Below, piece by piece: positions 13,195 to 58,651 of a stretch of DNA of 64,000 nucleotides. Below the pieces are notes generated by a model, which was given only the letters and a program-made list of their open reading frames with translations, was not told the DNA's origin and ran no database searches. Within the stretch, counting starts at the first letter, position 1. Each line of letters opens with the position of its first letter. Origin of the DNA: an archaeon (GTDB lineage: Archaea; Nanobdellota; Nanobdellia; Pacearchaeales; JAPDKA01). The DNA is taken from contig JAPDKA010000001.1 in NCBI GenBank assembly GCA_029258825.1, positions 35,548-99,547 on the forward strand. Direction: 5' to 3'. The position numbers were made by a program, and so were the translations under genes.

Positions 13195-13776
13195 TTAGTT
13201 TTTGCCTCTTATCAAATTTTTAACAAAACTTGCAAGTTTCTCAACTTTTGCTCGTCGTTTTGCGTAGAGTTGTTTTACCTTTTCGTAATTGCCTCTTGCT
13301 ATTCCTATCATAAGCAATTCGTAAAATGCTCTTCCGATTATTTCGTGCAGTACAGCCCTACGTCGAATTTTATCATTAGCTTCAAATGTTGTTACAAACT
13401 TAAATTTGTCTAGCCAAGCTCTGCCATAAACTTTACTTAAGCCATATGCTGCACGCTTTACGTGAAAGTCATCAGTTACAACAATTGCTCTCGCATTAGG
13501 GTCTTTTAAAACATCATAAAAAGAAAGTGCGTTTTCTATAGTATTTCTTGCATATTCAACTTTTGCTCCTTGGATGTAAGGAGCAAACTCTCTCAAGCGA
13601 GGATCATCATATAGGCCTGTTATATTTACACTAGCATCATGCTGTTCAGGCGTATTAAATCCTGTAAAGATGATTCTATCTGGTGCTAATCCAAGCTTAG
13701 TTAAAACTTCTAGGCCTTTCTTAATCCTTCTTTTTGATGGTCTTTCATCACCGCTATATATGATAAGGTATATCAT
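13195..13776 (-). CDS. DUF218 (YdcF/SanA-like) domain protein
   Basis: IVVTDDFHVKRAAY resembles the DUF218 VTSxYHMPRA core; 193 aa. Confidence 0.45.
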   Translation of the reverse strand: MIYLIIYSGDERPSKRRIKKGLEVLTKLGLAPDRIIFTGFNTPEQHDASVNITGLYDDPRLREFAPYIQGAKVEYARNTIENALSFYDVLKDPNARAIVVTDDFHVKRAAYGLSKVYGRAWLDKFKFVTTFEANDKIRRRAVLHEIIGRAFYELLMIGIARGNYEKVKQLYAKRRAKVEKLASFVKNLIRGKN

Positions 13777-13794: not shown

Positions 13795-14811
13795 TTATAT
13801 AATCAGCCAAACTGCAACGCAAATTACAACAACAAACTGTAGGAGCAATAAAAATGCCACAACGTCTTGCTCTGTTACTCTGTTTTTTATCGATTTTAGT
13901 AGTTTAATTGTAGCATGCGTAACACTATATATGTATTTGTATGGCTCATGCAGATAACCTTGCTTATCGAGTTTTGCAAAATTTTCTGCCTTAAACTTAC
14001 TTCTTGCTTTTAGAAATCCTTCTATAACAAAAGGAATAAACATAAACAAAGCGAGCTTTTCAACATTGCCTAAAATAGCAAAACAAGCAATCAAACTGCC
14101 GACAGTAAAAGTTAAACTATCTCCTGGAAACACTTTTGATGGATACTTATTGAATATTAAAAATGCTAACAGCGAGAAAAACATGGCCAAGGCAATTAAT
14201 GCTAACCAGTATTGTTTAGTATAAACAAAAATAAAACTAAAACCAAGCATGATTATACTTGCTAGTCCTGCTTCCAAACCATTATAACCTGCAAGCAAAT
14301 TAAAACCATTTGTGAATCCAACAACGAGCAATGGCACAATAACTAAGCTGTATGCTATACCAAAATTCACAGGCCCGATAAATGGAATTGACATAGTTGT
14401 GTTGCCCAACCTTAATACAGCAAGAGGGATTGCAATTGGTATTGTTGTAACTAACTTTTTCCATCCACCAAGACCTTTCTTCCAACCCAACACATCATCA
14501 ATAAAACCGATGAAGCAAGCAAGCGTGACTGTAACTGTCAAAGCCAAAACTTCAACAAAATGAGTTACGCTTTTCAATATAAAAGTCTTGAGAAAGAAAT
14601 ATACAAAAAGCGAAAGCAAAAAAGCAATAAACACAGCAACGCCACCAGCTTCGGCAACTTCATGTTTGGTTTGTTTGTTCATATCAAAGCCGACAAGCTT
14701 ATTAGCTTTAGCAAGATTTATCCACGCTTTGGTTAGCATAAAACTTGCAAAAAATGAGATACATACATACAGCAATCCAAACACAATGTTGCCTATAGTT
14801 ATTCCATCCAT
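13795..14811 (-). CDS. UDP-GlcNAc:dolichyl-phosphate GlcNAc-1-phosphate transferase-like (MraY/WecA/AglH family)
   Basis: Polytopic membrane protein; LVGFDMNKQTKHEVAEAGGVAV (D-x-NK...K...GG) and GFIDDVLG (DDxxD) motifs typical of polyprenyl-phosphate N-acetylhexosamine-1-P transferases. Confidence 0.65.
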   Translation of the reverse strand: MDGITIGNIVFGLLYVCISFFASFMLTKAWINLAKANKLVGFDMNKQTKHEVAEAGGVAVFIAFLLSLFVYFFLKTFILKSVTHFVEVLALTVTVTLACFIGFIDDVLGWKKGLGGWKKLVTTIPIAIPLAVLRLGNTTMSIPFIGPVNFGIAYSLVIVPLLVVGFTNGFNLLAGYNGLEAGLASIIMLGFSFIFVYTKQYWLALIALAMFFSLLAFLIFNKYPSKVFPGDSLTFTVGSLIACFAILGNVEKLALFMFIPFVIEGFLKARSKFKAENFAKLDKQGYLHEPYKYIYSVTHATIKLLKSIKNRVTEQDVVAFLLLLQFVVVICVAVWLII

Positions 14812-21436: not shown

Positions 21437-24071
<2,635 letters not shown>

Positions 24072-24661: not shown

Positions 24662-26206
24662 TTACCCAAAATACTTCGCTTTTTCTTCTTCAAATTTGTC
24701 TTTTCCTGTAAAAAAAGAAAACCAAGGGTATGATGCAATAAATTTTTCTCGCAAATAGGAAGCAAGTTGGCGGATTTCCCATTGAGCATGTTTGTCGTAT
24801 CTCAAATTAAGAAAATGATAAAACTCGCGAAAATTCATCATGCAGTAAACACGTCTTTTGTGAGCATTAGTAAGCACATATGCTGCATTCCAATAACCGC
24901 GTTCTCGCTCGATTTTCCTGTACAACGCTGAAGACGATTCTATTATTTGAATATACCTTTTAGCCAGCTCTTCATTGTTTGCAATACTTTCAGGAATTAC
25001 AAACCCAAACTCTGGCATGTATTGTTGCGGTAATAATGTCATCATTCTATGTCTCTTTAGTTGCGCAAAACAAGAAGCACTCATCACAGCAGAAAATGAT
25101 ATTGATGCATTTTCGAATTCTCTAGGTAAATCGTGATATGATTGCATGTACTCAAGAATCGCTTTGATTAATTCTCGTTTTTGTGCTTCAGTTAAATTTT
25201 TTGCCAGTTCTAAACATATATTATAATCGCGCCGTGTATGATGGAACAAGAAAGCTGCAAAGATCGGTGCATCATCGTCTAGCTTCACATATTCAACTGT
25301 ACAAGTTCTGCTATTTTCAGCTTTAGCATGATTATTAACAGCAACCGATTCTGTTAGAGATTTGCATAATTCTTCTAACTTATTTTGTTTATAATATTCA
25401 TCCGCATTTGTATACTTAATAAGATGTTCGACATATGGAACTTTATAAACTACTTGTTTTAATTTTTCAGCTAAGGCTTTTGCTTCATTTAACTCATGCG
25501 AGGCAAGCTTCTGAATTATGTATTCTAATTCCCTGCCATTAACACTAAACTCAAGTTTTGTCAATGTAAAAAGTGGTAAAATAAAACGTGCGTCCTCTTT
25601 TGGTATACCTGCTCTAATAGCGTGATTATAAAAAGAGATTTGTTGATCACGCAAACCAGCAACATCAGCACAATCTTGTAATTCTGGTGGTATAGGCAAT
25701 TCTGCTGAGTTAACATCAACAAACCGTTGTGATTTTTCTGTATAGCTTGCTAAGCGATGTTTTTCGATTATTTCCATCAATAATCGTGTTCCTATAATGT
25801 CAACATTAAAGTACATATGTTCAACTATCGATTTGTGACCCATTCTAACAAGTTTTCGGTCAAGTTTAACCAATTCTTCTATATTATTCCTGTAATAATT
25901 CCGCAGTTGCTCGAAACTTTTCTTTTGATGACTAATACCAGCACATGCTGTAGCAATCACAGCAGGTGAAATCCTTGAAAGAAAACCTTCAAAACATGCA
26001 AGAGCTGCAGTTTTTCCTTGTTTATTTAAAGTATTATTTAAAGTATCAACAAATTGCGCGATTTCCTTGGAAAGTTGTTCAATATCAACATTGTAGCCAT
26101 AAAGATTTACATAAGGCAAATCTGCAGACTTGCCATCAAGCATAACTGAATAATCCTGCATAGAAAACTGCAACTCGAGAAATTTAAAAAGATTTTTATA
26201 TTGCAA
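24662..26206 (-). CDS. thyX: flavin-dependent thymidylate synthase ThyX-like, tandem Thy1 domains
   Basis: First half MGHKSIVEHMYFNVDIIGTRLLMEIIEKHRLASYTEKSQRFV matches the ThyX core (HxS..EH....RHR-x7-S-x-R). Second half has a degenerate repeat (FAQLKRHRMMTLLPQQYM) lacking the Ser/Arg. Confidence 0.55.
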   Translation of the reverse strand: MQYKNLFKFLELQFSMQDYSVMLDGKSADLPYVNLYGYNVDIEQLSKEIAQFVDTLNNTLNKQGKTAALACFEGFLSRISPAVIATACAGISHQKKSFEQLRNYYRNNIEELVKLDRKLVRMGHKSIVEHMYFNVDIIGTRLLMEIIEKHRLASYTEKSQRFVDVNSAELPIPPELQDCADVAGLRDQQISFYNHAIRAGIPKEDARFILPLFTLTKLEFSVNGRELEYIIQKLASHELNEAKALAEKLKQVVYKVPYVEHLIKYTNADEYYKQNKLEELCKSLTESVAVNNHAKAENSRTCTVEYVKLDDDAPIFAAFLFHHTRRDYNICLELAKNLTEAQKRELIKAILEYMQSYHDLPREFENASISFSAVMSASCFAQLKRHRMMTLLPQQYMPEFGFVIPESIANNEELAKRYIQIIESSSALYRKIERERGYWNAAYVLTNAHKRRVYCMMNFREFYHFLNLRYDKHAQWEIRQLASYLREKFIASYPWFSFFTGKDKFEEEKAKYFG

Positions 26207-26272: not shown

Positions 26273-26345
26273 AGCCCGGTGGTGTAGCGGTCAAGCATAC
26301 CAGGCTCTGGACCTGGTGACGGCGGTTCGAATCCGCCCCGGGCTA
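26273..26345 (+). tRNA. tRNA-Gln (anticodon CUG)
   Basis: AGCCCGG acceptor, anticodon stem CCAGG-loop CUCUGGA-CCUGG, T-arm GGCGGUUCGAAUCCGCC, acceptor CCGGGCU + discriminator A. Confidence 0.8.
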
Positions 26346-29962: not shown

Positions 29963-30003
29963 AACTCGTTTTTATTTTTTTATTTTTATTATTTTTTTAT
30001 TTG

Positions 30004-30714
30004 TTAAAAAAACTCGTCAAGTTTTTTCTGTTGTTTTTTATTTATAGCATTTTTCCATGTTTGCCAAGATTTTCTAAAAATTCCAGCATGTTTAAACTTG
30101 TGTGCATGTTCTTCAAGAAAGTGTATTGTTAAGGGATCGCTCGGATAACCGCTACCAAAATCAAAACCAATTTGCTTTTTTATTTTTTCAATCTGTTGAT
30201 CGCGAACTGTTTTGGCAATTATTGATGCTGCTCCGACTACAACATGTTTTGCATCAGCTTTGTGCTCAACAATTAATGTGCAATCATAATCGATGTATTG
30301 CTGGAGATAATTCTTCCATGCTTTTATATTTGTTGAAGGACAATCGATAAAAACTGTGGGTCTTTCCCTGCGTAGTTCTGTTTGTGATTTGGTTTGAACT
30401 TGTTGTATTTTTTTGATTAGCTCATTAATAATTTTGGCAAATTTAATTGCTTCAAGTTTATTCATGTTTAATCCTGCATTAACTCTTGCGTCAATTTCTG
30501 TTGGTTGTATTATTGCTGTGATATAAGCTAAACAAGTTTGCTTTATCAATTCAGCAAGTTGTTTACGCTTGTTTGCGCTTAATTTTTTACTGTCACGCAC
30601 CCCTGCTTTCTTCATAGCTCTTATTTGTTGCCATGTTGCTGCAACACCGGCAAGCACCATCGGCCCAATTACAGGACCTCTACCGCTATCGTCAACACCT
30701 ATGTAGATTTTCAT
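30004..30714 (-). CDS. rnhB: ribonuclease HII
   Basis: N-terminus MKIYIGVDDSGRGPVIGPMVLAGV = RNase HII DEAGRGPV-GP motif; 236 aa. Confidence 0.85.
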   Translation of the reverse strand: MKIYIGVDDSGRGPVIGPMVLAGVAATWQQIRAMKKAGVRDSKKLSANKRKQLAELIKQTCLAYITAIIQPTEIDARVNAGLNMNKLEAIKFAKIINELIKKIQQVQTKSQTELRRERPTVFIDCPSTNIKAWKNYLQQYIDYDCTLIVEHKADAKHVVVGAASIIAKTVRDQQIEKIKKQIGFDFGSGYPSDPLTIHFLEEHAHKFKHAGIFRKSWQTWKNAINKKQQKKLDEFF

Positions 30715-30787
30715 AAATAAAACATGCTAAACGTATTTTTAAATCTGCGTATTTAAGCTGCTGTTTTGTCAAAAAAGAAACAGAAAG

Positions 30788-30862
30788 TAGCGGGGGGTGG
30801 ATTTGAACCACCGACCTTCGGGTTATGAGCCCGACGAGCACTCCTGGCTGCTCCACCCCGCT
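30788..30862 (-). tRNA. tRNA-Met (anticodon CAU), initiator-type
   Basis: Reverse complement AGCGGGGUGGAGCAGCC...UCGGGCUCAUAACCCGA...GGUGGUUCAAAUCCACCCCCCGCUA; A1:U72 and G29-G31:C39-C41 are typical of archaeal initiator tRNA. Confidence 0.85.
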
Positions 30863-31033
30863 GTTATTATTATAACATTGCTACTTTTAAAATCTAACGA
30901 TTGATAGAATTTAAGTAAACATGTATAAATTATATATCTTTGTTAATTCACAAACCACAAATAAATTTTTGGTTATAAATGAAATTAAAAATAAAATTTT
31001 TTAATAATGAAAAATACAAAAATTTATCAATAA

Positions 31034-31528
31034 TCAATGAATAATTATTCTATCATATGATCTCTTAATTCTAAAACTTATCCTTTCTCCTTCTATATCA
31101 AATTCTATAGACTTATACATTTTTTTCCCAAATGCAATCCTTTTACCATCTTTGTAGTAAACTTCTCTTTCTCCCTTAATAATTATTCTAATTTCTTCTT
31201 TATCTCCATCATTAATCTCTGACTCTATTCTAGAAGCTAGATATACTATATTTGATAGATCTCCAAACCCTCTCTCTGGACTCACATCTCGACATAGGTT
31301 ACACAAAACAGATTTTTTCTTTTTTCCATTTTCTACTACAACGCTTATTACACCCCGCAACCGAGCTTCAATTACATCAGAGTAGTCTCTAATATGGCTA
31401 ACAGTATATGCTACTCCAGTAGGTTGGCCAGAAATTACTGTTTCGAAATCTTGGATTACTGGTTTTGATAATTTTGTAGATGAGCCCCAAAATGCAGTCA
31501 GTAAAAGTAAAATATTAGGCAGTTTCAT
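31034..31528 (-). CDS. hypothetical secreted protein
   Basis: 164 aa; N-terminal signal-peptide-like MKLPNILLLLTAFWGSS; no catalytic motif recognised. Confidence 0.4.
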   Translation of the reverse strand: MKLPNILLLLTAFWGSSTKLSKPVIQDFETVISGQPTGVAYTVSHIRDYSDVIEARLRGVISVVVENGKKKKSVLCNLCRDVSPERGFGDLSNIVYLASRIESEINDGDKEEIRIIIKGEREVYYKDGKRIAFGKKMYKSIEFDIEGERISFRIKRSYDRIIIH

Positions 31529-31627: not shown

Positions 31628-31996
31628 TCAAAAACTAAGCAAAGTGATGCTGTATTTTCGTTTTACTGAGAAGTTTTTTGCTGCTAAAAATTTTAGATGC
31701 TTGTTTTCTGCCAGCCTTATTATTTCATCTGTGGCTTTACCGTCTATGATAACACCGACTGCATTTTTTAGTTTTGATTTCTTTAGCACTTTTATCAAAT
31801 CGTTAGCAGATAGTTTTTTAATAACATTAAAAGCGCTGTCAACTATATAAGCTTGTTTCGTATCGCTAATTTCAATGAATAATGGGGATAGTTTATCATA
31901 GATTTCTTCAAGGTTCTGATTAATATTAAGTTCTATTCCTGTTATTTTTGCAGTTTGTGTAGTTTGCTTTTGCCTTTGCTTTAGTTGTCGCTTTTG
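31628..31996 (-). other. Met-less 123-codon in-frame extension immediately downstream of the dnaG TAG stop (probable DnaG C-terminal region)
   Basis: Hand translation in the dnaG frame right after TAG (31997-31999): QKRQLKQRQKQTTQTAKITGIELNINQNLEEIYDKLSPLFIEISDTKQAYIVDSAFNVIKKLSANDLIKVLKKSKLKNAVGVIIDGKATDEIIRLAENKHLKFLAAKNFSVKRKYSITLLSF then TGA (31628-31630). Stop-free for 123 codons in ~30 percent GC DNA and contains no ATG. 307 + 123 = 430 aa (431 codons counting the TAG position) matches typical archaeal DnaG length. Confidence 0.45.
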
Positions 31997-32920
31997 CTAT
32001 TGTTTTTGCTTTGATTGTTGTTTCGCCTGTTTTGCTCTAGTTTGTTTTTGCTTTAACTTTGGTTTTCGCTTTTCTTTTTCTGCTTTTGCTTTTTTGAAGT
32101 ATTTAGCAATAAAATCGTCTACAGGCATACGCTTTCTCAAGCAATTCAATATTTCTTTCTCTGTAAGTTCCTCTACTTCCTTGCCGTCCGGTGCTCTAGC
32201 AATATACTTAACGTTTGCATTGGCTATTGCATCTTTGGCTATCAATAAACCGCCGCGATCGCCATCAACAAACAATGTGATTTCTTTTTCTTTACTTAGT
32301 TTCTTAATTGTTTCTGGCATTGAAGCACCTTCCATAGCTATAACATTGCAGATACCATATTTAACAAGATTAATAACATCAGCACGACCTTCAACCACAA
32401 TTAGTTCATTGCTGCTTAAGTCAGGACCTGCAGTCAATTTTTCTTTACCATATTTTTGAATTTCAGAAATCTTTGTTTCTGCCTTTACGGCTTCCTCAAG
32501 TTCTTTTGATTCTGGCAACTGCTTGCTTATCTGCTTTAACAACTCTTTTGCACGCTTAATTATGTATTCACGTTTATTCTCTCGCACATCTTCAATACGT
32601 GCTATCTCAAATTTTGCTTCAGCAGGCCCGATTCTATCGATAGTTTCAAGAGCTGCGGCAATCAATGTTGTCTCTGTTTTGTCAACTGCAGTCGGCACTA
32701 TCACTTCACCATAGCTCTTGCTATCTTTATGTTTAACAATTACATCAATTCTGCCGATTTTACCTTTCTTTTGCAAATCTCTCAACTCTAGTTCCTCACC
32801 AAGCAAGCCTTCTGTTTGGCCGAACACAGCACCTATAACATCTGGCTTTTCCACAATCCCGTTAGCAGTAAACTTCACGATAATCTTATATTTAATGGAT
32901 ACGGGACTTATCTTTCCCAT
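31997..32920 (-). CDS. dnaG: archaeal DNA primase DnaG (TOPRIM), terminated by an in-frame TAG
   Basis: LIVVEGRADVINLVKYGICNVIAMEGAS (TOPRIM Glu) and ITLFVDGDRGG (DxD); K/Q-rich linker, then TAG at 31997-31999. Confidence 0.8.
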   Translation of the reverse strand: MGKISPVSIKYKIIVKFTANGIVEKPDVIGAVFGQTEGLLGEELELRDLQKKGKIGRIDVIVKHKDSKSYGEVIVPTAVDKTETTLIAAALETIDRIGPAEAKFEIARIEDVRENKREYIIKRAKELLKQISKQLPESKELEEAVKAETKISEIQKYGKEKLTAGPDLSSNELIVVEGRADVINLVKYGICNVIAMEGASMPETIKKLSKEKEITLFVDGDRGGLLIAKDAIANANVKYIARAPDGKEVEELTEKEILNCLRKRMPVDDFIAKYFKKAKAEKEKRKPKLKQKQTRAKQAKQQSKQKQ

Positions 32921-35232: not shown

Positions 35233-36225
35233 TTATTTTGTTTTGCTTTTTTGCTTGCAATTTTGTTTATTTACTTGTTTACAATTGCCAATTCTTGTTT
35301 TTATCTTTTTCGTTTTGAATTTTGCTTTTTTATTTTTAAGTTTGTCTATCTCAAGCAGATGCAAAAATAACAACAGTTCATCAAGATTAGCGAGGTTAGC
35401 ATAATCAAGGTTTACGCCAGGACAAGCAAGAGCAACATAAAAATCTAACCCAAAATTGATAAGTTCTGCTTCAGTTATGTTGTCTGCAAGAAAGAAATAA
35501 ACCTTTTTATTTATTCGTTGTAATCGCTGCAATGCTCTTAATACTCTATCAAGTTGCATATTTTGCAGCATGAACTGCCCGGGCTTTACACTTATTATCA
35601 ACCCTATATTTGTGGCATAAACAAACCTAACAAATTTAGCTTTCTTTTGCTTCAACAATTGTTTTGCTATATCATTGTGATGCTGTAAAGTAATCTTGCC
35701 TAATGCTTGTAGTGAGGCTTGTATCGAGTAAACATGAAGCTTAGGCAATGTAAACTGTTTTTGCTTTCTTGCTGTATAATTCAGCAGTGCGTCAACAAAC
35801 ATTTTGATGTGAAATGTGCCAGAACCAACAAATAAAAAAATACAATCGTCAAACCTTAATTTTGATTTTTTTATTGCTGTGTAAATGATATTGAATGATT
35901 GACAACCAAGCACAGTGCCAGCATAAATAGCACTGCAGTGCTGCGCTACAAAGCTATAAACAATTTTGGCTATTGCCTCATCTTGCAATGTTGTAAATAC
36001 AACAATTGTTTTGTTTTTATTTTTTGCATGCTCAACTAGTTCAGCGATTTTTTTATTGTTTTTTAACGCTTTAGAATATTGCTTGCTTGCGGGTTTTACT
36101 GCTTTAACAACAATTACATCAATTTTGTCAAGCTTTTTATGCTGTTTGTTTTGCTCTTTGTGTTTTCTAACAGATTTGGCCATAGGAAAAAAAATCAAAA
36201 TAGATTTAAAAATATCATGGTTCAA
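35233..36225 (-). CDS. dph2: diphthamide synthase Dph2-like (2-(3-amino-3-carboxypropyl)histidine synthase family), N-terminally abbreviated
   Basis: KTIVVFTTLQDEAIAKI, GTVLGCQSFNI, IFLFVGSGTFH, IGLIISVKPGQ and YVALACPGVNLD resemble the domain 2/3 motifs of archaeal Dph2 (GSG-FH, ACP-V-LD), recalled from memory. The first ~70 aa are K-rich low complexity and a domain-1 Cys motif was not found. Confidence 0.5.
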   Translation of the reverse strand: MNHDIFKSILIFFPMAKSVRKHKEQNKQHKKLDKIDVIVVKAVKPASKQYSKALKNNKKIAELVEHAKNKNKTIVVFTTLQDEAIAKIVYSFVAQHCSAIYAGTVLGCQSFNIIYTAIKKSKLRFDDCIFLFVGSGTFHIKMFVDALLNYTARKQKQFTLPKLHVYSIQASLQALGKITLQHHNDIAKQLLKQKKAKFVRFVYATNIGLIISVKPGQFMLQNMQLDRVLRALQRLQRINKKVYFFLADNITEAELINFGLDFYVALACPGVNLDYANLANLDELLLFLHLLEIDKLKNKKAKFKTKKIKTRIGNCKQVNKQNCKQKSKTK

Positions 36226-36370
36226 TAAGAATAGCTCGAAAAATTACATTTTAAAAATCTGTGTATTTGTTACCTTTATTAAATAGTAAATAGAAAAATT
36301 TATAAACGAGTGAGTTTTAGTAAAGTTAAACTAAAGGTGAAATTAGAAAAAGAAGCAACACCAAAGCAGA

Positions 36371-37288
36371 ATGGAACACCAAATCCAAATCATAGGAAAC
36401 AGAAAAGATGGAAGGTTGGATAGTCTAGTTAGGGAAGCATTAGATAGTGGTTTATTTAGAAGAGCATATGAAAGAGTGATGGGGATAAGAACAAAACAAA
36501 AAGCAAGAACAAAGCAAGAATCACAAAATATTGAAAAGAAGTTGATAAGTAGTGTTGATGATTTAAAGGAAATTGAGGGTGTTTGTGAACTTCAACCTGG
36601 AAAGTATAACATATATTTTGAAATTGAGATTCCTGAAGGAAGTAAGCTTATATTGCCGGCTGGTGTTGAGCTTTATTTTGCTGAAAATTGTGGCATAACA
36701 TGTGATGGAGAGCTTGAAGTGAAAGGAAAGAAAGGTTTAGAAGTTATAATTAGTGCTTTAGACAAAGACAAAGGATGGAAGAATATTGTGGTTGGAGAAA
36801 AAGGTAAGGCAAAGTTTAATTATGCTAAGGTTAGTTATGGTAGGGGAAGAAAAGATAAAGATGGTGATGTTAGTGGAGGGGCTGTCTCGGTTTATGGGGA
36901 ATTCTATGCTGATAATTCTGTGTTTGAGGAGAATAGTGCAAAATATGGTGGGGCAATAAGGAATTATAAAGGAAAAGTAGAGATAGGGGAGAATAATGTG
37001 TTTAGAGGGAATAGTGCAGAAAATAATGGTGGGGCAATAAGGAATTATAAAGGAAAAGTAGAGATAGGGGAGAATAATGTGTTTAGAGGGAATAGTGCAG
37101 AAAATAATGGTGGGGCAATAAGGAATTATGAAGGAAAAGTAGAGATAGGGGAGAATAATGTGTTTAGGGAGAATAGTGCAGAAAATGATGGTGGGGCAAT
37201 AAGGAATTATGAAGGTGAACTAAATATAGATAAAAGTAAAAACACATTTATAGGAAATAAACCAGATGATATTTATATTGGAGATTAA
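36371..37288 (+). CDS. repeat protein: conserved N-terminal module + Pmp-like (GGAI / FxxN) beta-helix repeats
   Basis: N-terminal 47 aa MEHQIQIIGNRKDGRLDSLVREALDSGLFRRAYERVMGIR nearly identical to the N-terminus of ORF 43408-44460. C-terminal three 27-aa repeats GGAIRNYKGKVEIGENNVFRGNSAENN carry the GGAI and FxxN motifs of polymorphic-membrane-protein type parallel beta-helices. Confidence 0.6.
   Translation: MEHQIQIIGNRKDGRLDSLVREALDSGLFRRAYERVMGIRTKQKARTKQESQNIEKKLISSVDDLKEIEGVCELQPGKYNIYFEIEIPEGSKLILPAGVELYFAENCGITCDGELEVKGKKGLEVIISALDKDKGWKNIVVGEKGKAKFNYAKVSYGRGRKDKDGDVSGGAVSVYGEFYADNSVFEENSAKYGGAIRNYKGKVEIGENNVFRGNSAENNGGAIRNYKGKVEIGENNVFRGNSAENNGGAIRNYEGKVEIGENNVFRENSAENDGGAIRNYEGELNIDKSKNTFIGNKPDDIYIGD
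36947..37189 (+). repeat. 3 x 81-bp near-identical tandem coding repeats
   Basis: ggtggggcaataaggaattataaaggaaaagtagagataggggagaataatgtgtttagagggaatagtgcagaaaataat repeated three times with 1-3 substitutions. Confidence 0.7.
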
Positions 37289-37444: not shown

Positions 37445-37978
37445 ATGGAAAAAAAATTAACCATACTAAAACCATTTTTCGAGAATCCAAATAGGGAATT
37501 TCACATAAGAGAGCTCTCTAGGATGCTCAAAATAAACCATACTACAGTAAGGCAATATCTTAACAAATTCGTGAAAGAAAATTTACTCGAAATGAAGAAG
37601 GAAAGAAAATTTAAATTATTTAAAGCGAAGATTAATAGAAAATTCTTAAACTTAAAATTATTTTATAATTTAGAAAAAATCAGAAAGAGTGGTTTGATAG
37701 AAGATTTAGAAAGAAATTTTGATTTTCCACCAATTGTAATTTTTGGTTCTTATGCTCAAGCTATGGACAACAAAAACAGCGATATTGATATATGTATCAT
37801 TACTAACATTAAGAAAAAATTTAATACAACAAAGTATGAAAAAAAGCTTAATAGAAAATTAAGCTTACATATTTTTTCTGAAAAAGAGTGGGAAAAATTA
37901 AAGGTTACAAATCCAGAATTGGTAAACAGCATTTGTAATGGGATTGTTTTAGCAGGACAGTTAGAAGTAGTAAAATGA
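37445..37978 (+). CDS. wHTH-fused nucleotidyltransferase (MNT)
   Basis: HIRELSRMLKINHTTVRQYLNKFV HTH + IVIFGSYAQAMDNKNSDIDICII GS...DxD motif; paralog of 20223-20789. Confidence 0.65.
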   Translation: MEKKLTILKPFFENPNREFHIRELSRMLKINHTTVRQYLNKFVKENLLEMKKERKFKLFKAKINRKFLNLKLFYNLEKIRKSGLIEDLERNFDFPPIVIFGSYAQAMDNKNSDIDICIITNIKKKFNTTKYEKKLNRKLSLHIFSEKEWEKLKVTNPELVNSICNGIVLAGQLEVVK

Positions 37979-37981
37979 ACT

Positions 37982-38278
37982 TTGAAGAAAGCCTTAAAAA
38001 AGAGTTATGTAAAAAAGGTTAAAAAAGATAAATTTAGAGCAAAAAGCTTGATTAAGTCTGCAGAATTAATTTTAAAGACAATTAAACAAATTCCATTGAA
38101 TAAAACAAGTGCAAATACAATCTTAAGAGAACTTTATGAAGCGCTAAGACAATGCTGCGAAGCTATAGGTTATTTATACAGGTATAAATTTTTATCACAT
38201 GAAGCAATAACTTACTTTATTTCGGATGTTCTTGAAGACAAAAGACTTGCTCTAAAGTTTGATAGATACAGAAAATAA
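37982..38278 (+). CDS. HEPN domain protein
   Basis: 98 aa helical; paralog of 19765-20226; starts 4 nt after the MNT stop. Confidence 0.55.
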   Translation: MKKALKKSYVKKVKKDKFRAKSLIKSAELILKTIKQIPLNKTSANTILRELYEALRQCCEAIGYLYRYKFLSHEAITYFISDVLEDKRLALKFDRYRK

Positions 38279-41947: not shown

Positions 41948-43396
41948 ATGAAAATGGAAAAACAAAATAAAAACCTGGAAGAATTAACGTATGAAGAATT
42001 AATGTTGCCTGATGTACAATATTCCACAATAGCAGCAAGAATAGGTGATGTAGAACTCACTGTTTTAGATGTTATAGCTGCGGCTGTACTATCTGGAAGA
42101 TCTCTATTAATAGTTGGACATTCTGAAAAAGGAAAGTCATACATAGCAAGAATGATAAGAGATTATTGGTTCGGGGGAAGAGGCCATCTTATCCAAGCTG
42201 CATCACTTGATGACACCTCTGATCTGTTTACCCAAGTATTCAAGGAGTTAAGTAAAGAACAAGCTTCCGAAATTGTATTAGAAGAAAAACTTGCATATCC
42301 ATTCATTTTTGTCGATGAAGTTGGAGCGGTGCCAAAAGCTCTTCAGTCTCAATTTTGGCCAATTGGAGATGGAAAAATACCACATAAAGGGAAAGAGTAT
42401 TATCTTGGAATCCCAATAGAAGAAAAACAAAATATAAAAAGAAGATATCTATCCTATATAGCCTGTACCAATACAATAAGAGAGAGTGAAGATGGAGAAT
42501 ACAGCAATTTTGGCATTACTAAAGCAACGGCATCAAGATTCCATCTTTTATTAGACACAAGAAGAAAACTTAGAAGAAAAGAGGAGGACATTATAGATAT
42601 TATTATGTCAGATAATGTTGATGTAAGACATACAGAAACAATAGAAAAAAAAGACATAACACACAAAATAATTAATGCTCATAAAAAAATAATCAAGTTA
42701 GCTGAGAATACATCAATAGAAGAACGCATTGTTCTTGCATATTTAGGAATCGGAACTGGAAAATGTAAAAAAGGAGAAAAATATGAAGATGGGTGGCAAT
42801 TAAAATGTATGGATTGTAAAGAACAAGAAGACTGTCCTAATGCATATTTGTTTAATTATGAAATGTTAAGACAAGTAAAAAATATTAAAATATTTGCTAA
42901 TGCTTTATATTATGTGGCTTCCTTAAAAAGTAAAGGGGTAAATGGCCAAGTGGACCCTTATGATGCTGTTTTTGAGGCTGCAAAATTTGTTATAGCAGGA
43001 AAGTACTCTACAATGAATGAACTCTTGATGAGAGAAAAACAGTTACCGGATTATGATTTTGTTGAAAATGCGATAGACAAACTAAAACAAGAATTCAACA
43101 AAGTAAGGCCATTCATAGAAGTAAGCATTGAGGTGGCCGAAAAATATGGTGAGGTTGTAACTCAGTTTTATGAAGATAATAATAGAGTATATCCAATAAG
43201 CGAAAGATTCTTTGAAGAAGTAGGTAAGGCCAGAGGATTGAAAGGAGAAAAACTTCAATCCTACGTTAAAGAAATCTACAATGAAATTCAAAAAAGCAAC
43301 ATAATAGAGCCATACAATGATAATGGCTATGTCTCCCTATCTTGGTTCCCAAAACTACTTGAAAGATATATAACAAAATTAAAGCAAGAAAAATAA
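41948..43396 (+). CDS. MoxR-like AAA+ ATPase with C-terminal Cys-cluster extension
   Basis: Walker A LLIVGHSEKGKSYIARMI, Walker B FIFVDEVGAVP, sensor region ACTNTIRESEDGEYSNFGITKATASRFHLLLD (MoxR AT-NP...L-RF-like); C-terminal CKKGEKYEDGWQLKCMDCKEQEDCPNAY. Confidence 0.65.
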   Translation: MKMEKQNKNLEELTYEELMLPDVQYSTIAARIGDVELTVLDVIAAAVLSGRSLLIVGHSEKGKSYIARMIRDYWFGGRGHLIQAASLDDTSDLFTQVFKELSKEQASEIVLEEKLAYPFIFVDEVGAVPKALQSQFWPIGDGKIPHKGKEYYLGIPIEEKQNIKRRYLSYIACTNTIRESEDGEYSNFGITKATASRFHLLLDTRRKLRRKEEDIIDIIMSDNVDVRHTETIEKKDITHKIINAHKKIIKLAENTSIEERIVLAYLGIGTGKCKKGEKYEDGWQLKCMDCKEQEDCPNAYLFNYEMLRQVKNIKIFANALYYVASLKSKGVNGQVDPYDAVFEAAKFVIAGKYSTMNELLMREKQLPDYDFVENAIDKLKQEFNKVRPFIEVSIEVAEKYGEVVTQFYEDNNRVYPISERFFEEVGKARGLKGEKLQSYVKEIYNEIQKSNIIEPYNDNGYVSLSWFPKLLERYITKLKQEK

Positions 43397-43407
43397 ACAA
43401 AGCTAAA

Positions 43408-44460
43408 ATGGAAAACAAAATTTTGATTATAGGAAACAGAAAAGGTGGAAGGTTGGAGGGTTTAGTTAGGGAAGCATTAGATAGTGGTTTATTTAGAAGA
43501 GTATATGAAAAGGTGATGGGGATAAGGAGAGAGAAGAAACGGGAAGAAATAAAAAGCAAGCCAATTTCAAAATTAGAATCTGGACTGTATATTGGTGGAG
43601 ATTTTACTAAAGTTGGTCGTTTGAAATTGGATGATAGAGGTATTGTAAAGTATGAGAATGGTAGAATAGAGAAGGTTGTGGATGGGTTTGATTGGATTGA
43701 GCATTTCATTGAGAAGGATGGTGTGTTGTATATTGGTGGAGGTTTCACTAAGGTTGGTGGTTTGAAATTGAATGATAGAGGTATTGTAAAGTATGAGAAT
43801 GGTAGAATAGAGAAGGTTGTGGATGGGTTTAATGGTCGGATTAAGCATTTCATTGAGAAAGATGGTGTGTTGTATATAGGTGGAGGTTTTACTAAGGTTG
43901 ATGGTTTGAAATTGGATGGTTGTGGTATTGTAAAGTATGAGAATGGTAGAATAGAGAAGGTTGTGGATGGGTTTAATGATCGGATTATGCATTTCATTGA
44001 GAAAGATGGTGTGTTGTATATTGGTGGAGGTTTCACTAAGGTTGGTGGTTTGAAATTGGATGGTTGTGGTATTGTAAAGTATGAGAATGGTAGAATAGAG
44101 AAGGTTGTGGATGGGTTTAATGATTGGATTATGCATTTCATTGAGAAGGATGGTGTGTTGTATATAGGTGGAGGTTTTACTAAGGTTGATGGTTTGAAAT
44201 TGGATGGCAGAGGTATTGTAAAGTATGAGAATGGTAGAATAGAGAGGGTTGTGGATGGGTTTGATGATCGGATTAAGCATTTCATTGAGAAGGATGGTGT
44301 GTTGTATATTGGTGGAGGTTTTACTAAGGTTGATGGTTTGAAATTGGATGGCAGAGGTATTGTAAAGTATGAGAATGGTAGAATAGAGAGGGTTGTGGAT
44401 GGGTTTGATGATTGGATTAGGCATTTCATGGAAATTAAAAATAAAACAAAATTAGAATGA
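43408..44460 (+). CDS. repeat protein: conserved N-terminal module + six 47-aa Kelch-like (beta-propeller blade) repeats
   Basis: N-terminus MENKILIIGNRKGGRLEGLVREALDSGLFRRVYEKVMGIR shared with ORF 36371-37288. Six repeats LYIGGGFTKVxGLKLDxxGIVKYENGRIEKVVDGFxxxIxHFIEKDGV with a GG doublet and conserved Y/W/G spacing reminiscent of Kelch blades. Confidence 0.6.
   Translation: MENKILIIGNRKGGRLEGLVREALDSGLFRRVYEKVMGIRREKKREEIKSKPISKLESGLYIGGDFTKVGRLKLDDRGIVKYENGRIEKVVDGFDWIEHFIEKDGVLYIGGGFTKVGGLKLNDRGIVKYENGRIEKVVDGFNGRIKHFIEKDGVLYIGGGFTKVDGLKLDGCGIVKYENGRIEKVVDGFNDRIMHFIEKDGVLYIGGGFTKVGGLKLDGCGIVKYENGRIEKVVDGFNDWIMHFIEKDGVLYIGGGFTKVDGLKLDGRGIVKYENGRIERVVDGFDDRIKHFIEKDGVLYIGGGFTKVDGLKLDGRGIVKYENGRIERVVDGFDDWIRHFMEIKNKTKLE
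43585..44430 (+). repeat. 6 x 141-bp near-identical tandem repeats (coding)
   Basis: Period-141 repetition seen directly, e.g. ttgtatattggtggaggtttcactaaggttggtggtttgaaattg...gagaatggtagaatagagaaggttgtggatgggttt recurring at 43729, 43870, 44011, 44152 and 44293 with few substitutions; this also generates long spurious ORFs on the minus strand. Confidence 0.8.
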
Positions 44461-44502
44461 AACACTAAATTTAAATCATAGGAAAAAACAGATTTTCTCC
44501 TT

Positions 44503-45126
44503 TTATTTCTTCTCCTCGTTACCTTCTTCCTTCTTTTCCTCGGCTGGCTTTTCAGCTGGCTTCACTTTTTTCTCGAGTTGTGCTTTGATTGTTTCTAGTT
44601 CTCGTTTTAGTTTAGCTTGCTTTTCTGGGCTAACTGTTAGCATTTCTTGTTCAGCTTTTGCTATAAGATCGTCATATTTACCTTCTTCAACCTCTTTAAT
44701 AACTTCCCTAGGATCTTTACTTTCGACTAATACACCCATACTAACACAACTACCAAGCACTGTTTTAAGAGCATTCTTCAAACTTAATGTCGGCAATGCT
44801 TCAAGCTTTGACTTAGCTATGTTTATTGCCTGTTCTATAGCAAGATTACCGACCTTAATTACATGCGGTTGTGATGATGCAGTCTCTATGCTGAGTTCCT
44901 TCTTAATTAATTCAGTCGCAGGCGGTGTTAAAACTTTAACATTAAAGTCTTTAGTTTTCGTATCTATGTCAAGCACAACAGGAACACGCATACCTTTAAA
45001 CTGTTGAGTAGCTTTGTTAACTTCACTAATTACCTTACCTAAATTAATACCTAAAGGCCCAAGCTTTTGGCTGATGTCTGGGCCTGGCTTCATGTTGCCG
45101 CCTTCAACAAGTATCTTGATTTCCAT
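44503..45126 (-). CDS. rpl11: ribosomal protein L11 (uL11) with K/E-rich C-terminal extension
   Basis: From internal Met: MEIKILVEGGNMKPGPDISQKLGPLGINLGKV...VLTPPATELIKK...GSCVSMGV matches uL11. The track ORF (to 45297) has a 57-aa non-conserved N-terminal over-extension. ~70-aa K/E-rich tail. Confidence 0.8.
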   Translation of the reverse strand: MEIKILVEGGNMKPGPDISQKLGPLGINLGKVISEVNKATQQFKGMRVPVVLDIDTKTKDFNVKVLTPPATELIKKELSIETASSQPHVIKVGNLAIEQAINIAKSKLEALPTLSLKNALKTVLGSCVSMGVLVESKDPREVIKEVEEGKYDDLIAKAEQEMLTVSPEKQAKLKRELETIKAQLEKKVKPAEKPAEEKKEEGNEEKK

Positions 45127-45375
45127 ATTTGAGTTAGCACCATAAACATTTTTAAATTTTTGCATTCTTAGATTTGTATCTGCAATGAAGACTGTATTGT
45201 GACAGGATGTACAATAGATTGTCAAAGCAGGTTTGAACAAGAAAGGATGAGCATATGCATACTGCCAGAATTGCCTATTCCAACGCAACGAATACAACTA
45301 GGCTATGAGTGTATATAGCTAATAAATGTTCATGGCAAAAACAAAATAAAAAATAAAAAATTAATAAAAATAAAC

Positions 45376-47872: not shown

Positions 47873-48088
47873 ATGCTAATCAAAGTTAAAGTAAAACCCA
47901 ATGCAAAGCAAGATAAAATAGAAATAAGTAAGGATTGTATTATGGTTTATACAAAACAACCGGCAGAAAAAGGTAGAGCAAACGCTGCTGTAGTAAAATT
48001 AATTGCAAAACATTTTGGCGTTAGTACTTCATACGTGAAGATTGTCAAAGGAAAAACGTCAAGAGAAAAACTAGTAGAAGTAAAATGA
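47873..48088 (+). CDS. DUF167 (YggU-like) protein
   Basis: IKVKVKPNAKQDKIEI...AEKGRANAAVVKLIAKHFGVSTSYVKIVKGKTSREKLVEV follows the DUF167 pattern (v.P.ak...i......pp.dGkAN.al..fla..l.v....v.i..G.tsr.K.v.i). Confidence 0.6.
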   Translation: MLIKVKVKPNAKQDKIEISKDCIMVYTKQPAEKGRANAAVVKLIAKHFGVSTSYVKIVKGKTSREKLVEVK

Positions 48089-48540
48089 AAGTAAAAATAA
48101 AAAAACAAAATAGACAAAAACAAATAAAATATGAAATTGCTGACGATGTCAAACAACTTGTTCTAGACATTATTGAAGTCTTAAAGCTGAAACACATAGA
48201 TACTAACAGACTAGCATGCGTTAGAAGCAGAAACAGCAAAACAAAAAATACTATAGCAAGATGTCACGGTACTGCAAAAATACTGCAGATAGCATTCAAC
48301 ATAAAACCGCATTACGTTATTGAAGTGATCAGCGAAAAATTTGACAAGCTCGATAAGAGCGAAAAGATTAAAGTATTAATTCATGAACTAATGCACATTC
48401 CGAAAAATTTTGGAGGGGGCTTCAGGCATCATGACTTTGTGAATGATAATCTCGTCGAGAAATTGTACGCAAGATACGTTAACGCTAAATACATGAAGGA
48501 AAAATATGGTTTAGTCGTCGAAAAAACGAAAGATATTTAA
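48085..48540 (+). CDS. putative zinc metallopeptidase (HExxH; SprT/Wss1-like)
   Basis: IHELMHIPKNFGGGFRHHDF contains HELMH (HExxH) plus downstream His; N-terminal basic region; 151 aa; 4-bp overlap with DUF167. Confidence 0.4.
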   Translation: MKVKIKKQNRQKQIKYEIADDVKQLVLDIIEVLKLKHIDTNRLACVRSRNSKTKNTIARCHGTAKILQIAFNIKPHYVIEVISEKFDKLDKSEKIKVLIHELMHIPKNFGGGFRHHDFVNDNLVEKLYARYVNAKYMKEKYGLVVEKTKDI

Positions 48541-48588
48541 ACTTACGAGCATGTGTATTTTCAACTAAATCAAATAAAAGAGGTAAAA

Positions 48589-48894
48589 ATGGGAACTGTA
48601 ATTTTGAAGAAAGCTGTTAAAAGAGAAAAAGGTTACTTGTACTATGTTGATGCGAAGGGTAATGTTTGTATGGCACCGATGGCAAGAGGAAAAAAGAAAG
48701 CAAAGGGAAAAGCAAAGGTATTGGTGAAAAATGCAGTGAAAAGAAAACCAGGTTACTTGTACTATGTTGATGCGAAGGGTAATGTTTGTATGGCAAAAAT
48801 GGCTCGCGGTGGTAAGAAGAAAAAGAAAAAGGCAAAGAAAGCGAAAAAGACAAAAGCAAAGAAAGCAAAGGCAAAGAAAAAGAAAAGAAGATAA
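48589..48894 (+). CDS. small basic protein with internal 40-aa duplication and poly-Lys tail (putative nucleic-acid binding)
   Basis: KAVKREKGYLYYVDAKGNVCMAPMARG / NAVKRKPGYLYYVDAKGNVCMAKMARG repeat, then a KKKKKKAKKAKKTKAKKAKAKKKK tail; RBS aagagg 6 nt upstream of ATG 48589. Confidence 0.45.
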   Translation: MGTVILKKAVKREKGYLYYVDAKGNVCMAPMARGKKKAKGKAKVLVKNAVKRKPGYLYYVDAKGNVCMAKMARGGKKKKKKAKKAKKTKAKKAKAKKKKRR

Positions 48895-57394: not shown

Positions 57395-58651
57395 CTATTC
57401 AAAAGAAATTTTTACTATGTTTTTCAAAATAATCTTCTTATTTTTTTCTTCAACGATTTTTTCTTTACCTTGATAAATAATCCATCCTTTTTTGACATTA
57501 TATTTTTTCATGAACCATCCCAAATTTTTTAGTTTCTTTTTTTCTATCTCTTCTCTTGATGTTACTTCTATAGGTAAAATTTCTTTATTCTTTTTTATGA
57601 AATCTATTTCTTTATCCTTCTCTCTAAAATATTTATCTAAATTAAGAATGTGCATTATTAAATTTTCATAAAGCTTTCCTTTATCTTCGAAAAAATACAC
57701 TTTAGCTAGGCTTGGATGATAAGCATAGATTTTTTGCATCTTTCTTGATTCTGCCATTATAGATGGTCTATAATTCTTCACAATCCTTATGAGTTTTCCA
57801 AATTCTAAAAAGAATAAATGTTCTTTTAAAGTGAGTTTGTGAACATGAAAATTTTTACTTAGTTCATCTATGTTAAGTATCATTCCATTATTTTTATAAA
57901 ATAACTCAAGTAAAGCCCTTAAGAGTGAAATATTTACTTTTTTGAAAATCATTGGTATATCGCTAACAACTTTTTCTATAATCATGCTTGTTATGTATTC
58001 ATTAACTTCTTCTTTATTTTCCCATTTAACTATTTCTGGAAATGGCCTTTCAAGATAATCATCAAAAACAGCTTCGATTTTGTCTTGAAAAAGTTCAAAA
58101 TTTTCTATTGTTTTTCCATAATAAAGTTCTGCAAATTCTTTAAGACTTAATGGACTTACTTCTAACTTAAAGTGTCTCCCAGCAAGATTATCTATAGCTC
58201 CTTTTTCAAGCATTAAACCTGCTGATCCGCTGAGACAAAATTTTATATTCGGTAGAGAATCATAAAGGAGTTTTATTTTTTCATGCCAGTTTTTAAGTTT
58301 TTGTATTTCATCAAAAAAAACAAAAATCTTTTCTTTTTTCCAATCAACCTTTGTTATTTTCTCACATTCTTTAAAGATTTCTATAGGCTCTTCAATTCTT
58401 TTATCAAAATTGAAGTAGATTATGTTTTTTGCATTTATACCTCTATCTAGAAGTTTTTTTATTAATTGATACATTAATGTTGTTTTGCCTACTCTTCTTA
58501 ATCCAGTAAGTATCAATATTTGTCTATGTCTGAAACGTTCCATAATCTTTTCCATTATCTTTCTTTCGTATGGCAATGCTTTTTGCTTGCTTATTCCTTG
58601 TGTCTGCCACCATTCATTAAAAATTAATAATTCTTCCATATTAGTTCTCAT
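57395..58651 (-). CDS. ATPase of the AAA_14/DUF4143 family (archaeal ATPase)
   Basis: Walker A ILILTGLRRVGKTTL, Walker B VFFDEIQ; C-terminal DUF4143-like region; 418 aa. Confidence 0.55.
   Translation of the reverse strand: MRTNMEELLIFNEWWQTQGISKQKALPYERKIMEKIMERFRHRQILILTGLRRVGKTTLMYQLIKKLLDRGINAKNIIYFNFDKRIEEPIEIFKECEKITKVDWKKEKIFVFFDEIQKLKNWHEKIKLLYDSLPNIKFCLSGSAGLMLEKGAIDNLAGRHFKLEVSPLSLKEFAELYYGKTIENFELFQDKIEAVFDDYLERPFPEIVKWENKEEVNEYITSMIIEKVVSDIPMIFKKVNISLLRALLELFYKNNGMILNIDELSKNFHVHKLTLKEHLFFLEFGKLIRIVKNYRPSIMAESRKMQKIYAYHPSLAKVYFFEDKGKLYENLIMHILNLDKYFREKDKEIDFIKKNKEILPIEVTSREEIEKKKLKNLGWFMKKYNVKKGWIIYQGKEKIVEEKNKKIILKNIVKISFE

Follow-up and report, generated by a model that had tools for sequence, protein, structure and literature searches.

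A dnaG primase gene interrupted by a single in-frame TAG codon in a Pacearchaeales archaeon

We analyzed a 64,000-nucleotide (nt) stretch of DNA from a DPANN archaeon of the Pacearchaeales (GenBank assembly GCA_029258825.1, contig JAPDKA010000001.1, positions 35,548 to 99,547 of the forward strand; hereafter, the window), in which the gene for the archaeal primase DnaG is interrupted by an in-frame TAG codon. This dnaG is a minus-strand gene, a point left unstated in the earlier note that drew attention to it. Its annotated open reading frame (ORF) begins with ATG at position 32920 and codes for 307 amino acids before reaching the TAG, which the plus strand reads as 'cta' at 31997-31999. The surrounding protein sequence is ...AKQQSKQKQ*QKRQLKQRQKQ..., and the stop indeed falls within the K/Q-rich linker of the TOPRIM primase ORF, as had been noted. 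Beyond it, the same frame remains open for 122 sense codons; the open frame was correctly recognized before, but the count of 123 codons given for it holds only if the final TGA is included, and the last 10 residues of the extension, which ends ...KYSITLLSF, had been omitted. Similarly, the joined product is of normal length for archaeal DnaG, as proposed, but it comprises 430 residues with the TAG position already counted, rather than 431 codons with the TAG.

The extension contains no methionine codon, in agreement with the earlier note, and the earliest in-frame ATG, GTG or TTG is a TTG at 31798, from which only 56 codons remain. Stop triplets account for 6.2% of the minus-strand triplets, so the chance probability of 122 consecutive open codons is approximately 4e-4. 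Because of this low value, which bears out the earlier impression that the open stretch was unlikely to be fortuitous, and because the extension has a significant match of its own to the DnaG C-terminus, a chance origin is excluded. Among the 65 proxy genes of the window, dnaG is alone in having a long in-frame open stretch after it that does not merely belong to the following gene. With the TAG as the end of dnaG, a 468-nt gap separates it from its neighbor, which is among the largest in the window, where most are shorter than 200 nt; this gap argues that the stretch was coding until recently. The features of the locus are collected in Table 1.

Table 1. Features of the interrupted dnaG locus and the nearby glutamine tRNA (window coordinates)
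Feature	Position	Strand	Basis
dnaG 5' part: N-terminal RNA-binding domain, TOPRIM domain and first half of the linker (307 codons plus TAG)	31997..32920	-	ORF list, translation, NF003108, Pfam Toprim families
TOPRIM domain, residues ~171-251, with motifs EGRAD and DGDRGG	32168..32410	-	PF13662/PF01751/PF13155, invariant columns
K/Q/R-rich linker with the TAG inside, residues ~272-328	31937..32107	-	variable and unalignable, dN/dS 0.40, low pLDDT, indels
In-frame TAG, codon 308; CAG (Gln) in the closest relative	31997-31999	-	sequence, DNA and codon alignments with L002, second assembly L001
DnaG C-terminal domain, residues 329-430, wholly 3' of the TAG	31631..31936	-	NF003108, conserved columns, dN/dS 0.041, P0001 model
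TGA, ancestral dnaG stop, common to the closest relative	31628-31630	-	translation, alignment with L002
tRNA-Gln(CUG), possible near-cognate UAG reader (context only)	26273..26345	+	ARAGORN, Rfam; role from yeast data

The 307-residue part matches the NCBIfam profile for archaeal DnaG (NF003108; 419 positions, curated cutoff 300 bits) over positions 1-298, with a score of 403 bits. When searched alone, the 122-residue extension matches positions 307-417 of the same profile (E 1.1e-6), and the joined product covers positions 1-417 with a score raised from 403 to 437.7 bits. Alignments with 8 and with 63 homologues place the conserved C-terminal columns D393, G394, A404, E405, A414, N416, F417, L427 and S429 within the extension. 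These matches identify the extension as the genuine C-terminal domain of DnaG; the alignment to archaeal DnaG suggested in the earlier note thus recovers the conserved domain that was looked for. Tryptic peptides of this domain include, for example, ITGIELNINQNLEEIYDK, LSPLFIEISDTK and ATDEIIR. A Pfam search of the product identified the TOPRIM domain only (residues 171-251), with the conserved acidic Glu and the DxD motif of the family both present within blocks that are invariant in 64 sequences (E177, G178, R179, A180 and D181; D219, G220, D221, R222, G223 and G224). Archaeal DnaG proteins (NF003108 / PRK04031), such as that of Sulfolobus solfataricus, have the same three parts as the window gene, namely an N-terminal RNA-binding domain, a TOPRIM domain marked by EGRAD and DGDRGG, and a domain at the C-terminus. 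In the closest relative and in all 78 complete orthologues described below, the frame is unbroken, whereas in the window one linker TAG separates the C-terminal domain from TOPRIM and the annotated product has only 307 residues. From its sequence, then, we assign the locus to the archaeal DnaG family, with an encoded product that, as written, is truncated.

The AlphaFold2 model of the closest intact orthologue (P0001) was used to stand for the structure of the window protein. In this model, the N-terminal domain and TOPRIM, extending to residue ~284, have predicted local distance difference test (pLDDT) scores above 90, the linker (residues 288-324) is disordered with scores below 50, and residues 330-426 form a compact alpha/beta C-terminal domain with scores of 94-97. 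The linker varies in length among dnaG orthologues and could not be aligned. The TAG is therefore predicted by the model to fall in a disordered linker, with the entire folded C-terminal domain coming after it. A Foldseek search of the model against the PDB returned bacterial DnaG cores and the TOPRIM domain of RNase M5 as the only matches, with no archaeal DnaG structure among them.

By the names of its homologues, the window belongs to DPANN archaea of the Pacearchaeota type. P0001, which is encoded on Logan contig L002 and ranks first among database matches behind the 307-residue product of the window itself, is a protein of 426 amino acids that is 87-89% identical to the window product over 100% coverage and has no interruption; the two genes share the terminal TGA. 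In a codon alignment, L002 reads CAA-AAG-CAA-CAG-CAA where the window reads CAA-AAA-CAA-TAG-CAA. Because L002 carries CAG at the aligned codon, the window TAG is a single C-to-T transition from an ancestral Gln codon, which directly shows the CAG-to-TAG point change that had been listed among the options in the earlier note. With a genome GC content of ~33%, C-to-T is the expected direction of mutation. The two genes differ by three insertions or deletions (indels) of 3, 6 and 9 nt, all within the linker and the 9-nt one 3' of the TAG; since all are multiples of three, neither side of the stop is frameshifted. Ratios of nonsynonymous to synonymous divergence (dN/dS), obtained as Nei-Gojobori estimates between the window and L002, were 0.049 for the N-terminal domain and TOPRIM (dN 0.036), 0.40 for the linker, and 0.041 for the C-terminal domain past the TAG, where 34 synonymous and 9 nonsynonymous differences were found (dS 0.92, dN 0.038). 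In this comparison, nonsynonymous changes are not measurably more frequent 3' of the TAG, and no secondary lesion, either a frameshift or a second stop, is found there. Thus, either the stop arose very recently compared with the split of the two lineages, or it is spurious, or translation of the domain continues.

The same TAG is found in a second public contig (L001; ENA ERZ25515926 NODE_352, 8.2 kb, header coverage ~8), which matches the window at 99.93% identity across 5937 nt, with four mismatches that all lie at window positions 30000-30951. The public annotation of this contig has no gene call on the extension. A lookup of two neighboring proteins only returned NODE_352 again. An exact-pattern scan with the TAG codon left degenerate had no match in genome_contigs or metagenome_contigs, and a scan for a genus-level conserved stretch had none in metagenome_contigs. 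A protein search with the C-terminal 169 residues returned nothing, not even P0001, which reflects a word-index limit and does not count as evidence. We also collected 80 dnaG loci from species-representative metagenome-assembled genomes (MAGs) of Pacearchaeota, Woesearchaeota and Nanoarchaeota, at most 54% identical to the window gene, 78 of which hold the whole gene. Every one of the 78 is a single uninterrupted ORF of 368-431 codons that runs through the position of the TAG; homologs ending at that position, which the earlier note had said would speak against an interruption, were not seen among them. P0002 is the sole protein of ~307 amino acids among the best 120 protein matches. By these comparisons, the interruption is private to this lineage.

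This organism uses TAG as a regular stop codon. The 65 proxy genes of the window end in TAA (45), TGA (11) or TAG (9, including dnaG), and the eight other genes ending in TAG have only 1-23 open codons beyond the stop. In four of them, the stop coincides with the end of the family profile: the YchF-like GTPase (NF007171 positions 3-395 of 397 on residues 6-397 of 398), TYW1 (TIGR03972 to position 297 of 297), prefoldin beta (TIGR02338 to 106 of 110) and LspA (PF01252 to 139 of 142). The earlier note was also right that aglB terminates in ...TS-TAG with more stops shortly after. TAG is likewise the normal terminator in 14 of the 78 complete dnaG orthologues. Within the 64 kb, no other conserved gene has an in-frame TAG, and ARAGORN and Rfam identified no tRNA(CUA) among the seven tRNAs of the window, nor any other RNA family. 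The conclusion that TAG terminates normally follows from the eight other TAG-ended genes, the stops at profile ends, the lack of a second interrupted gene and the lack of tRNA(CUA) in the window. No Pyl genes were found among the annotated ORFs of the window.

Several other candidates for interrupted genes were considered and rejected. TAG-split ORF pairs at 21447, 53923 and 32712 are artefacts lying antisense to CDC48, the YchF-like gene and dnaG, respectively. The ORF at 48085-48540, ending in TAA, encodes a complete metallopeptidase of the phage type, and that at 48553-48894 is a gene of its own; those at 13795-14811 and 13195-13776 are also two genes. The ORFs at 37445-37978, ending in TGA, and 37982-38278 encode a nucleotidyltransferase and a separate small partner. 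This last pair (37445-38278, plus strand) consists of a 177-residue protein with helix-turn-helix and nucleotidyltransferase domains (Polbeta/NTP_transf_2) and, 3 nt on and in the same frame, a 98-residue ORF without a family match; it looks like a two-gene nucleotidyltransferase/partner module of the toxin-antitoxin-like kind. This leaves dnaG as the sole interrupted gene in the window.

Recoding, whether by pyrrolysine, by a suppressor tRNA(CUA) or by reassignment of TAG to Gln, has in its favor the in-frame TAG itself and nothing more. Pyrrolysine-type recoding, known from methanogenic and related archaea, likewise places a UAG in frame inside a conserved gene of an archaeon, but the UAG of the window is not conserved, TAG freely terminates other genes and is about as common a stop as TGA (8 versus 11 genes), and the ancestral residue is a Gln of the disordered linker rather than a catalytic one. 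A full-text literature search also found no paper on stop-codon reassignment in DPANN archaea. Thus, the local recoding raised as an option in the earlier note is unsupported, since TAG is not depleted as a stop and the window lacks tRNA(CUA), and we consider recoding in any form to be extremely improbable. Scarcely better, and very unlikely in our view, is a split gene in which the C-terminal domain would be translated from its own start and join the N-terminal fragment non-covalently. The modeled structure would permit this, as the domain is predicted to fold independently beyond a disordered linker, but the TAG is not followed by any ATG, GTG or TTG before the domain begins, the TTG at 31798 leaves just 56 of its ~102 residues, the public assembly has no gene call there, and no orthologue is split.

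Functional read-through, in which a leaky UAG would be read by the near-cognate tRNA-Gln(CUG) to give short and full-length DnaG from a tolerated or regulatory allele, deserves more weight, yet we regard it as improbable. The extension is perfectly preserved and in frame, although a very recent origin accounts equally well for this, and the predicted position of the TAG in a disordered linker would make any inserted residue tolerable. The context of the stop, CAA-UAG-CAA-AAG (window 31991-32005, minus strand), resembles the leaky context of the tobacco mosaic virus type (CAA-UAG-CAA-UUA), with which it shares CAA-UAG-CAA. That system, however, is eukaryotic and viral, and the window has only the first three bases, half, of its six-base 3' motif. 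The window uses CAA for Gln far more than CAG (540 versus 167 codons), and the CAA codons around the TAG are most simply Gln codons of the Q-rich linker. Two of the eight other TAG stops in the window, all genuine terminators, likewise have a C at position +4, so this base does not set the dnaG TAG apart from them; a special termination context was accordingly rejected as evidence. In a fold of 131 nt around and 3' of the TAG, no stimulatory RNA structure was found, the minimum free energy of -5.9 kcal/mol (z = +1.31) indicating that the region is less structured than its shuffled versions. A gene for tRNA-Gln(CUG) is encoded nearby, and near-cognate tRNAs in yeast decode UAG as Gln (via tRNA-Gln CUG), Tyr or Lys (PMC4150775). 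Against this, a 2021 review lists selenocysteine (Sec), pyrrolysine (Pyl) and -1 frameshifting as the only recoding demonstrated in Archaea, so that stop-codon read-through is established there for Sec and Pyl only (PMC8211752). Finally, the stop is not conserved, being CAG in the nearest relative and absent from all 78 other species, and programmed read-through, also offered in the earlier note, finds no support in these relatives or in the RNA fold. A more specific version, in which a fixed TAG allele is partly read by tRNA-Gln(CUG) to produce a major DnaG without the exosome-docking domain and a minor full-length isoform, seems to us more doubtful still; if true, Archaea would have a first case of natural stop-codon read-through involving neither Sec nor Pyl.

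We favor, as somewhat the better bet on the sequence comparisons, a recent, lineage-private nonsense allele that changed CAG to TAG in the linker of an otherwise normal dnaG. The alternative is that the genome really has CAG, and that the T entered the consensus of a low-coverage metagenome assembly through a miscall, from a minority variant, or as another sequencing or assembly artefact. We think this unlikely, though it is the alternative to be taken most seriously. The codon differs from the ancestral CAG by a single base, the rest of the gene is faultless, and it is a housekeeping gene that is the only one interrupted among ~65 in the window. On the other hand, the TAG is present in both assemblies, which differ from one another at four sites, and its position in the window is neither in a homopolymer nor at a contig end. 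Substitution errors are also rare in consensus sequences from short reads. We infer that the T is a real allele and not a consensus error. Several observations weigh against this preference: the second contig has a coverage of only ~8x, the two assemblies may share reads, selection should act against a truncating allele of a protein that all archaea conserve, and the total lack of decay fits a wrong consensus base equally well.

If the nonsense allele is real, its history and consequences may be pictured as follows. One C-to-T transition would have made a Gln CAG into TAG in the disordered K/Q-rich linker of DnaG in this Pacearchaeota-type (DPANN) genome. Translation would then mostly halt at codon 308, yielding a 307-residue protein consisting of the N-terminal domain and TOPRIM. 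Without its C-terminal domain of ~100 residues, this DnaG would probably be uncoupled from the exosome. In Sulfolobus, this domain is important for attaching DnaG to the exosome's Csl4 cap; in S. solfataricus, DnaG lacking the C-terminal domain is impaired in its binding to the Csl4-exosome, and conservation of the domain tracks the presence of the exosome (PMC4227792). Full-length DnaG would presumably arise only through background near-cognate misreading of the UAG, for example by tRNA-Gln(CUG), and a Gln inserted at this position would restore the ancestral sequence.

The feature belongs to a well-known class, that of genes disrupted by a single real or apparent nonsense change, and is not a new kind of element. 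Like the ordinary nonsense-mutated genes and early-stage pseudogenes of prokaryotic genomes and MAGs, it shows a single transition from a sense codon that is kept in a sister lineage, an interruption that is absent elsewhere, and no recoding signal. Unlike them, it has no secondary decay: neither the relaxed constraint nor the further lesions that would be expected past the stop of a pseudogene are seen. Hence, either the lesion is extremely young, or it is spurious, or the cell tolerates the truncated protein along with some leakage.

Several further observations were made in the window. Directly 3' of dnaG lies a 164-residue ORF (31034-31528, minus strand) with a hydrophobic, signal-like N-terminus (MKLPNILLLLTAFWG...) and no Pfam match. 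It is missing from L002 (2575-2694), where a region matching the tRNA-Met locus (window 30810-30930) follows within ~50 nt of dnaG, and it has the look of a gene inserted between dnaG and tRNA-Met specifically in this lineage. A 514-residue ORF at 24662-26206 (minus strand), about twice the usual length of thymidylate synthase ThyX, matches the ThyX profile in two separate stretches, which suggests a tandem-duplicated or fused ThyX. ORFs of 399 residues (43266-44465, minus strand) and 350 residues (43408-44460, plus strand) overlap almost fully on opposite strands, and a third of 283 residues overlaps them too; GC skew is strongly positive across the region (+0.37), whose sole match is a faint acylphosphatase-like one to the plus-strand product. 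The ribosomal protein L11 ORF at 44503-45297 (minus strand; 264 amino acids, TTG start) matches the 164-position L11 profile over residues 59-217 only, so its true start is probably further downstream, and its C-terminal tail extends ~45 residues past the profile. The cumulative GC skew reaches its minimum at ~36200-36400, with genes almost all on the minus strand upstream and mostly on the plus strand downstream, and this divergence point could mark a replication-related boundary. The product of the ORF at 48085-48540 (plus strand) matches 'putative phage metallopeptidase' (PF18894, E 7e-25) and that at 57395-58651 (minus strand) is an AAA_14/DUF4143 ATPase; both may be remnants of mobile or viral DNA.

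The interrupted gene is mainly an issue of annotation: the dnaG locus is complete, but its public call stops at 307 amino acids, and what passes for 468 nt of "intergenic" DNA after it in fact encodes the C-terminal domain. Only if efficient read-through were demonstrated would the gene bear on the question of whether archaeal read-through occurs without Sec or Pyl. If the allele is real, archaeal DnaG has been truncated naturally at its C-terminus in a reduced DPANN genome, which would suggest that this lineage can do without the exosome-docking domain, at least temporarily.

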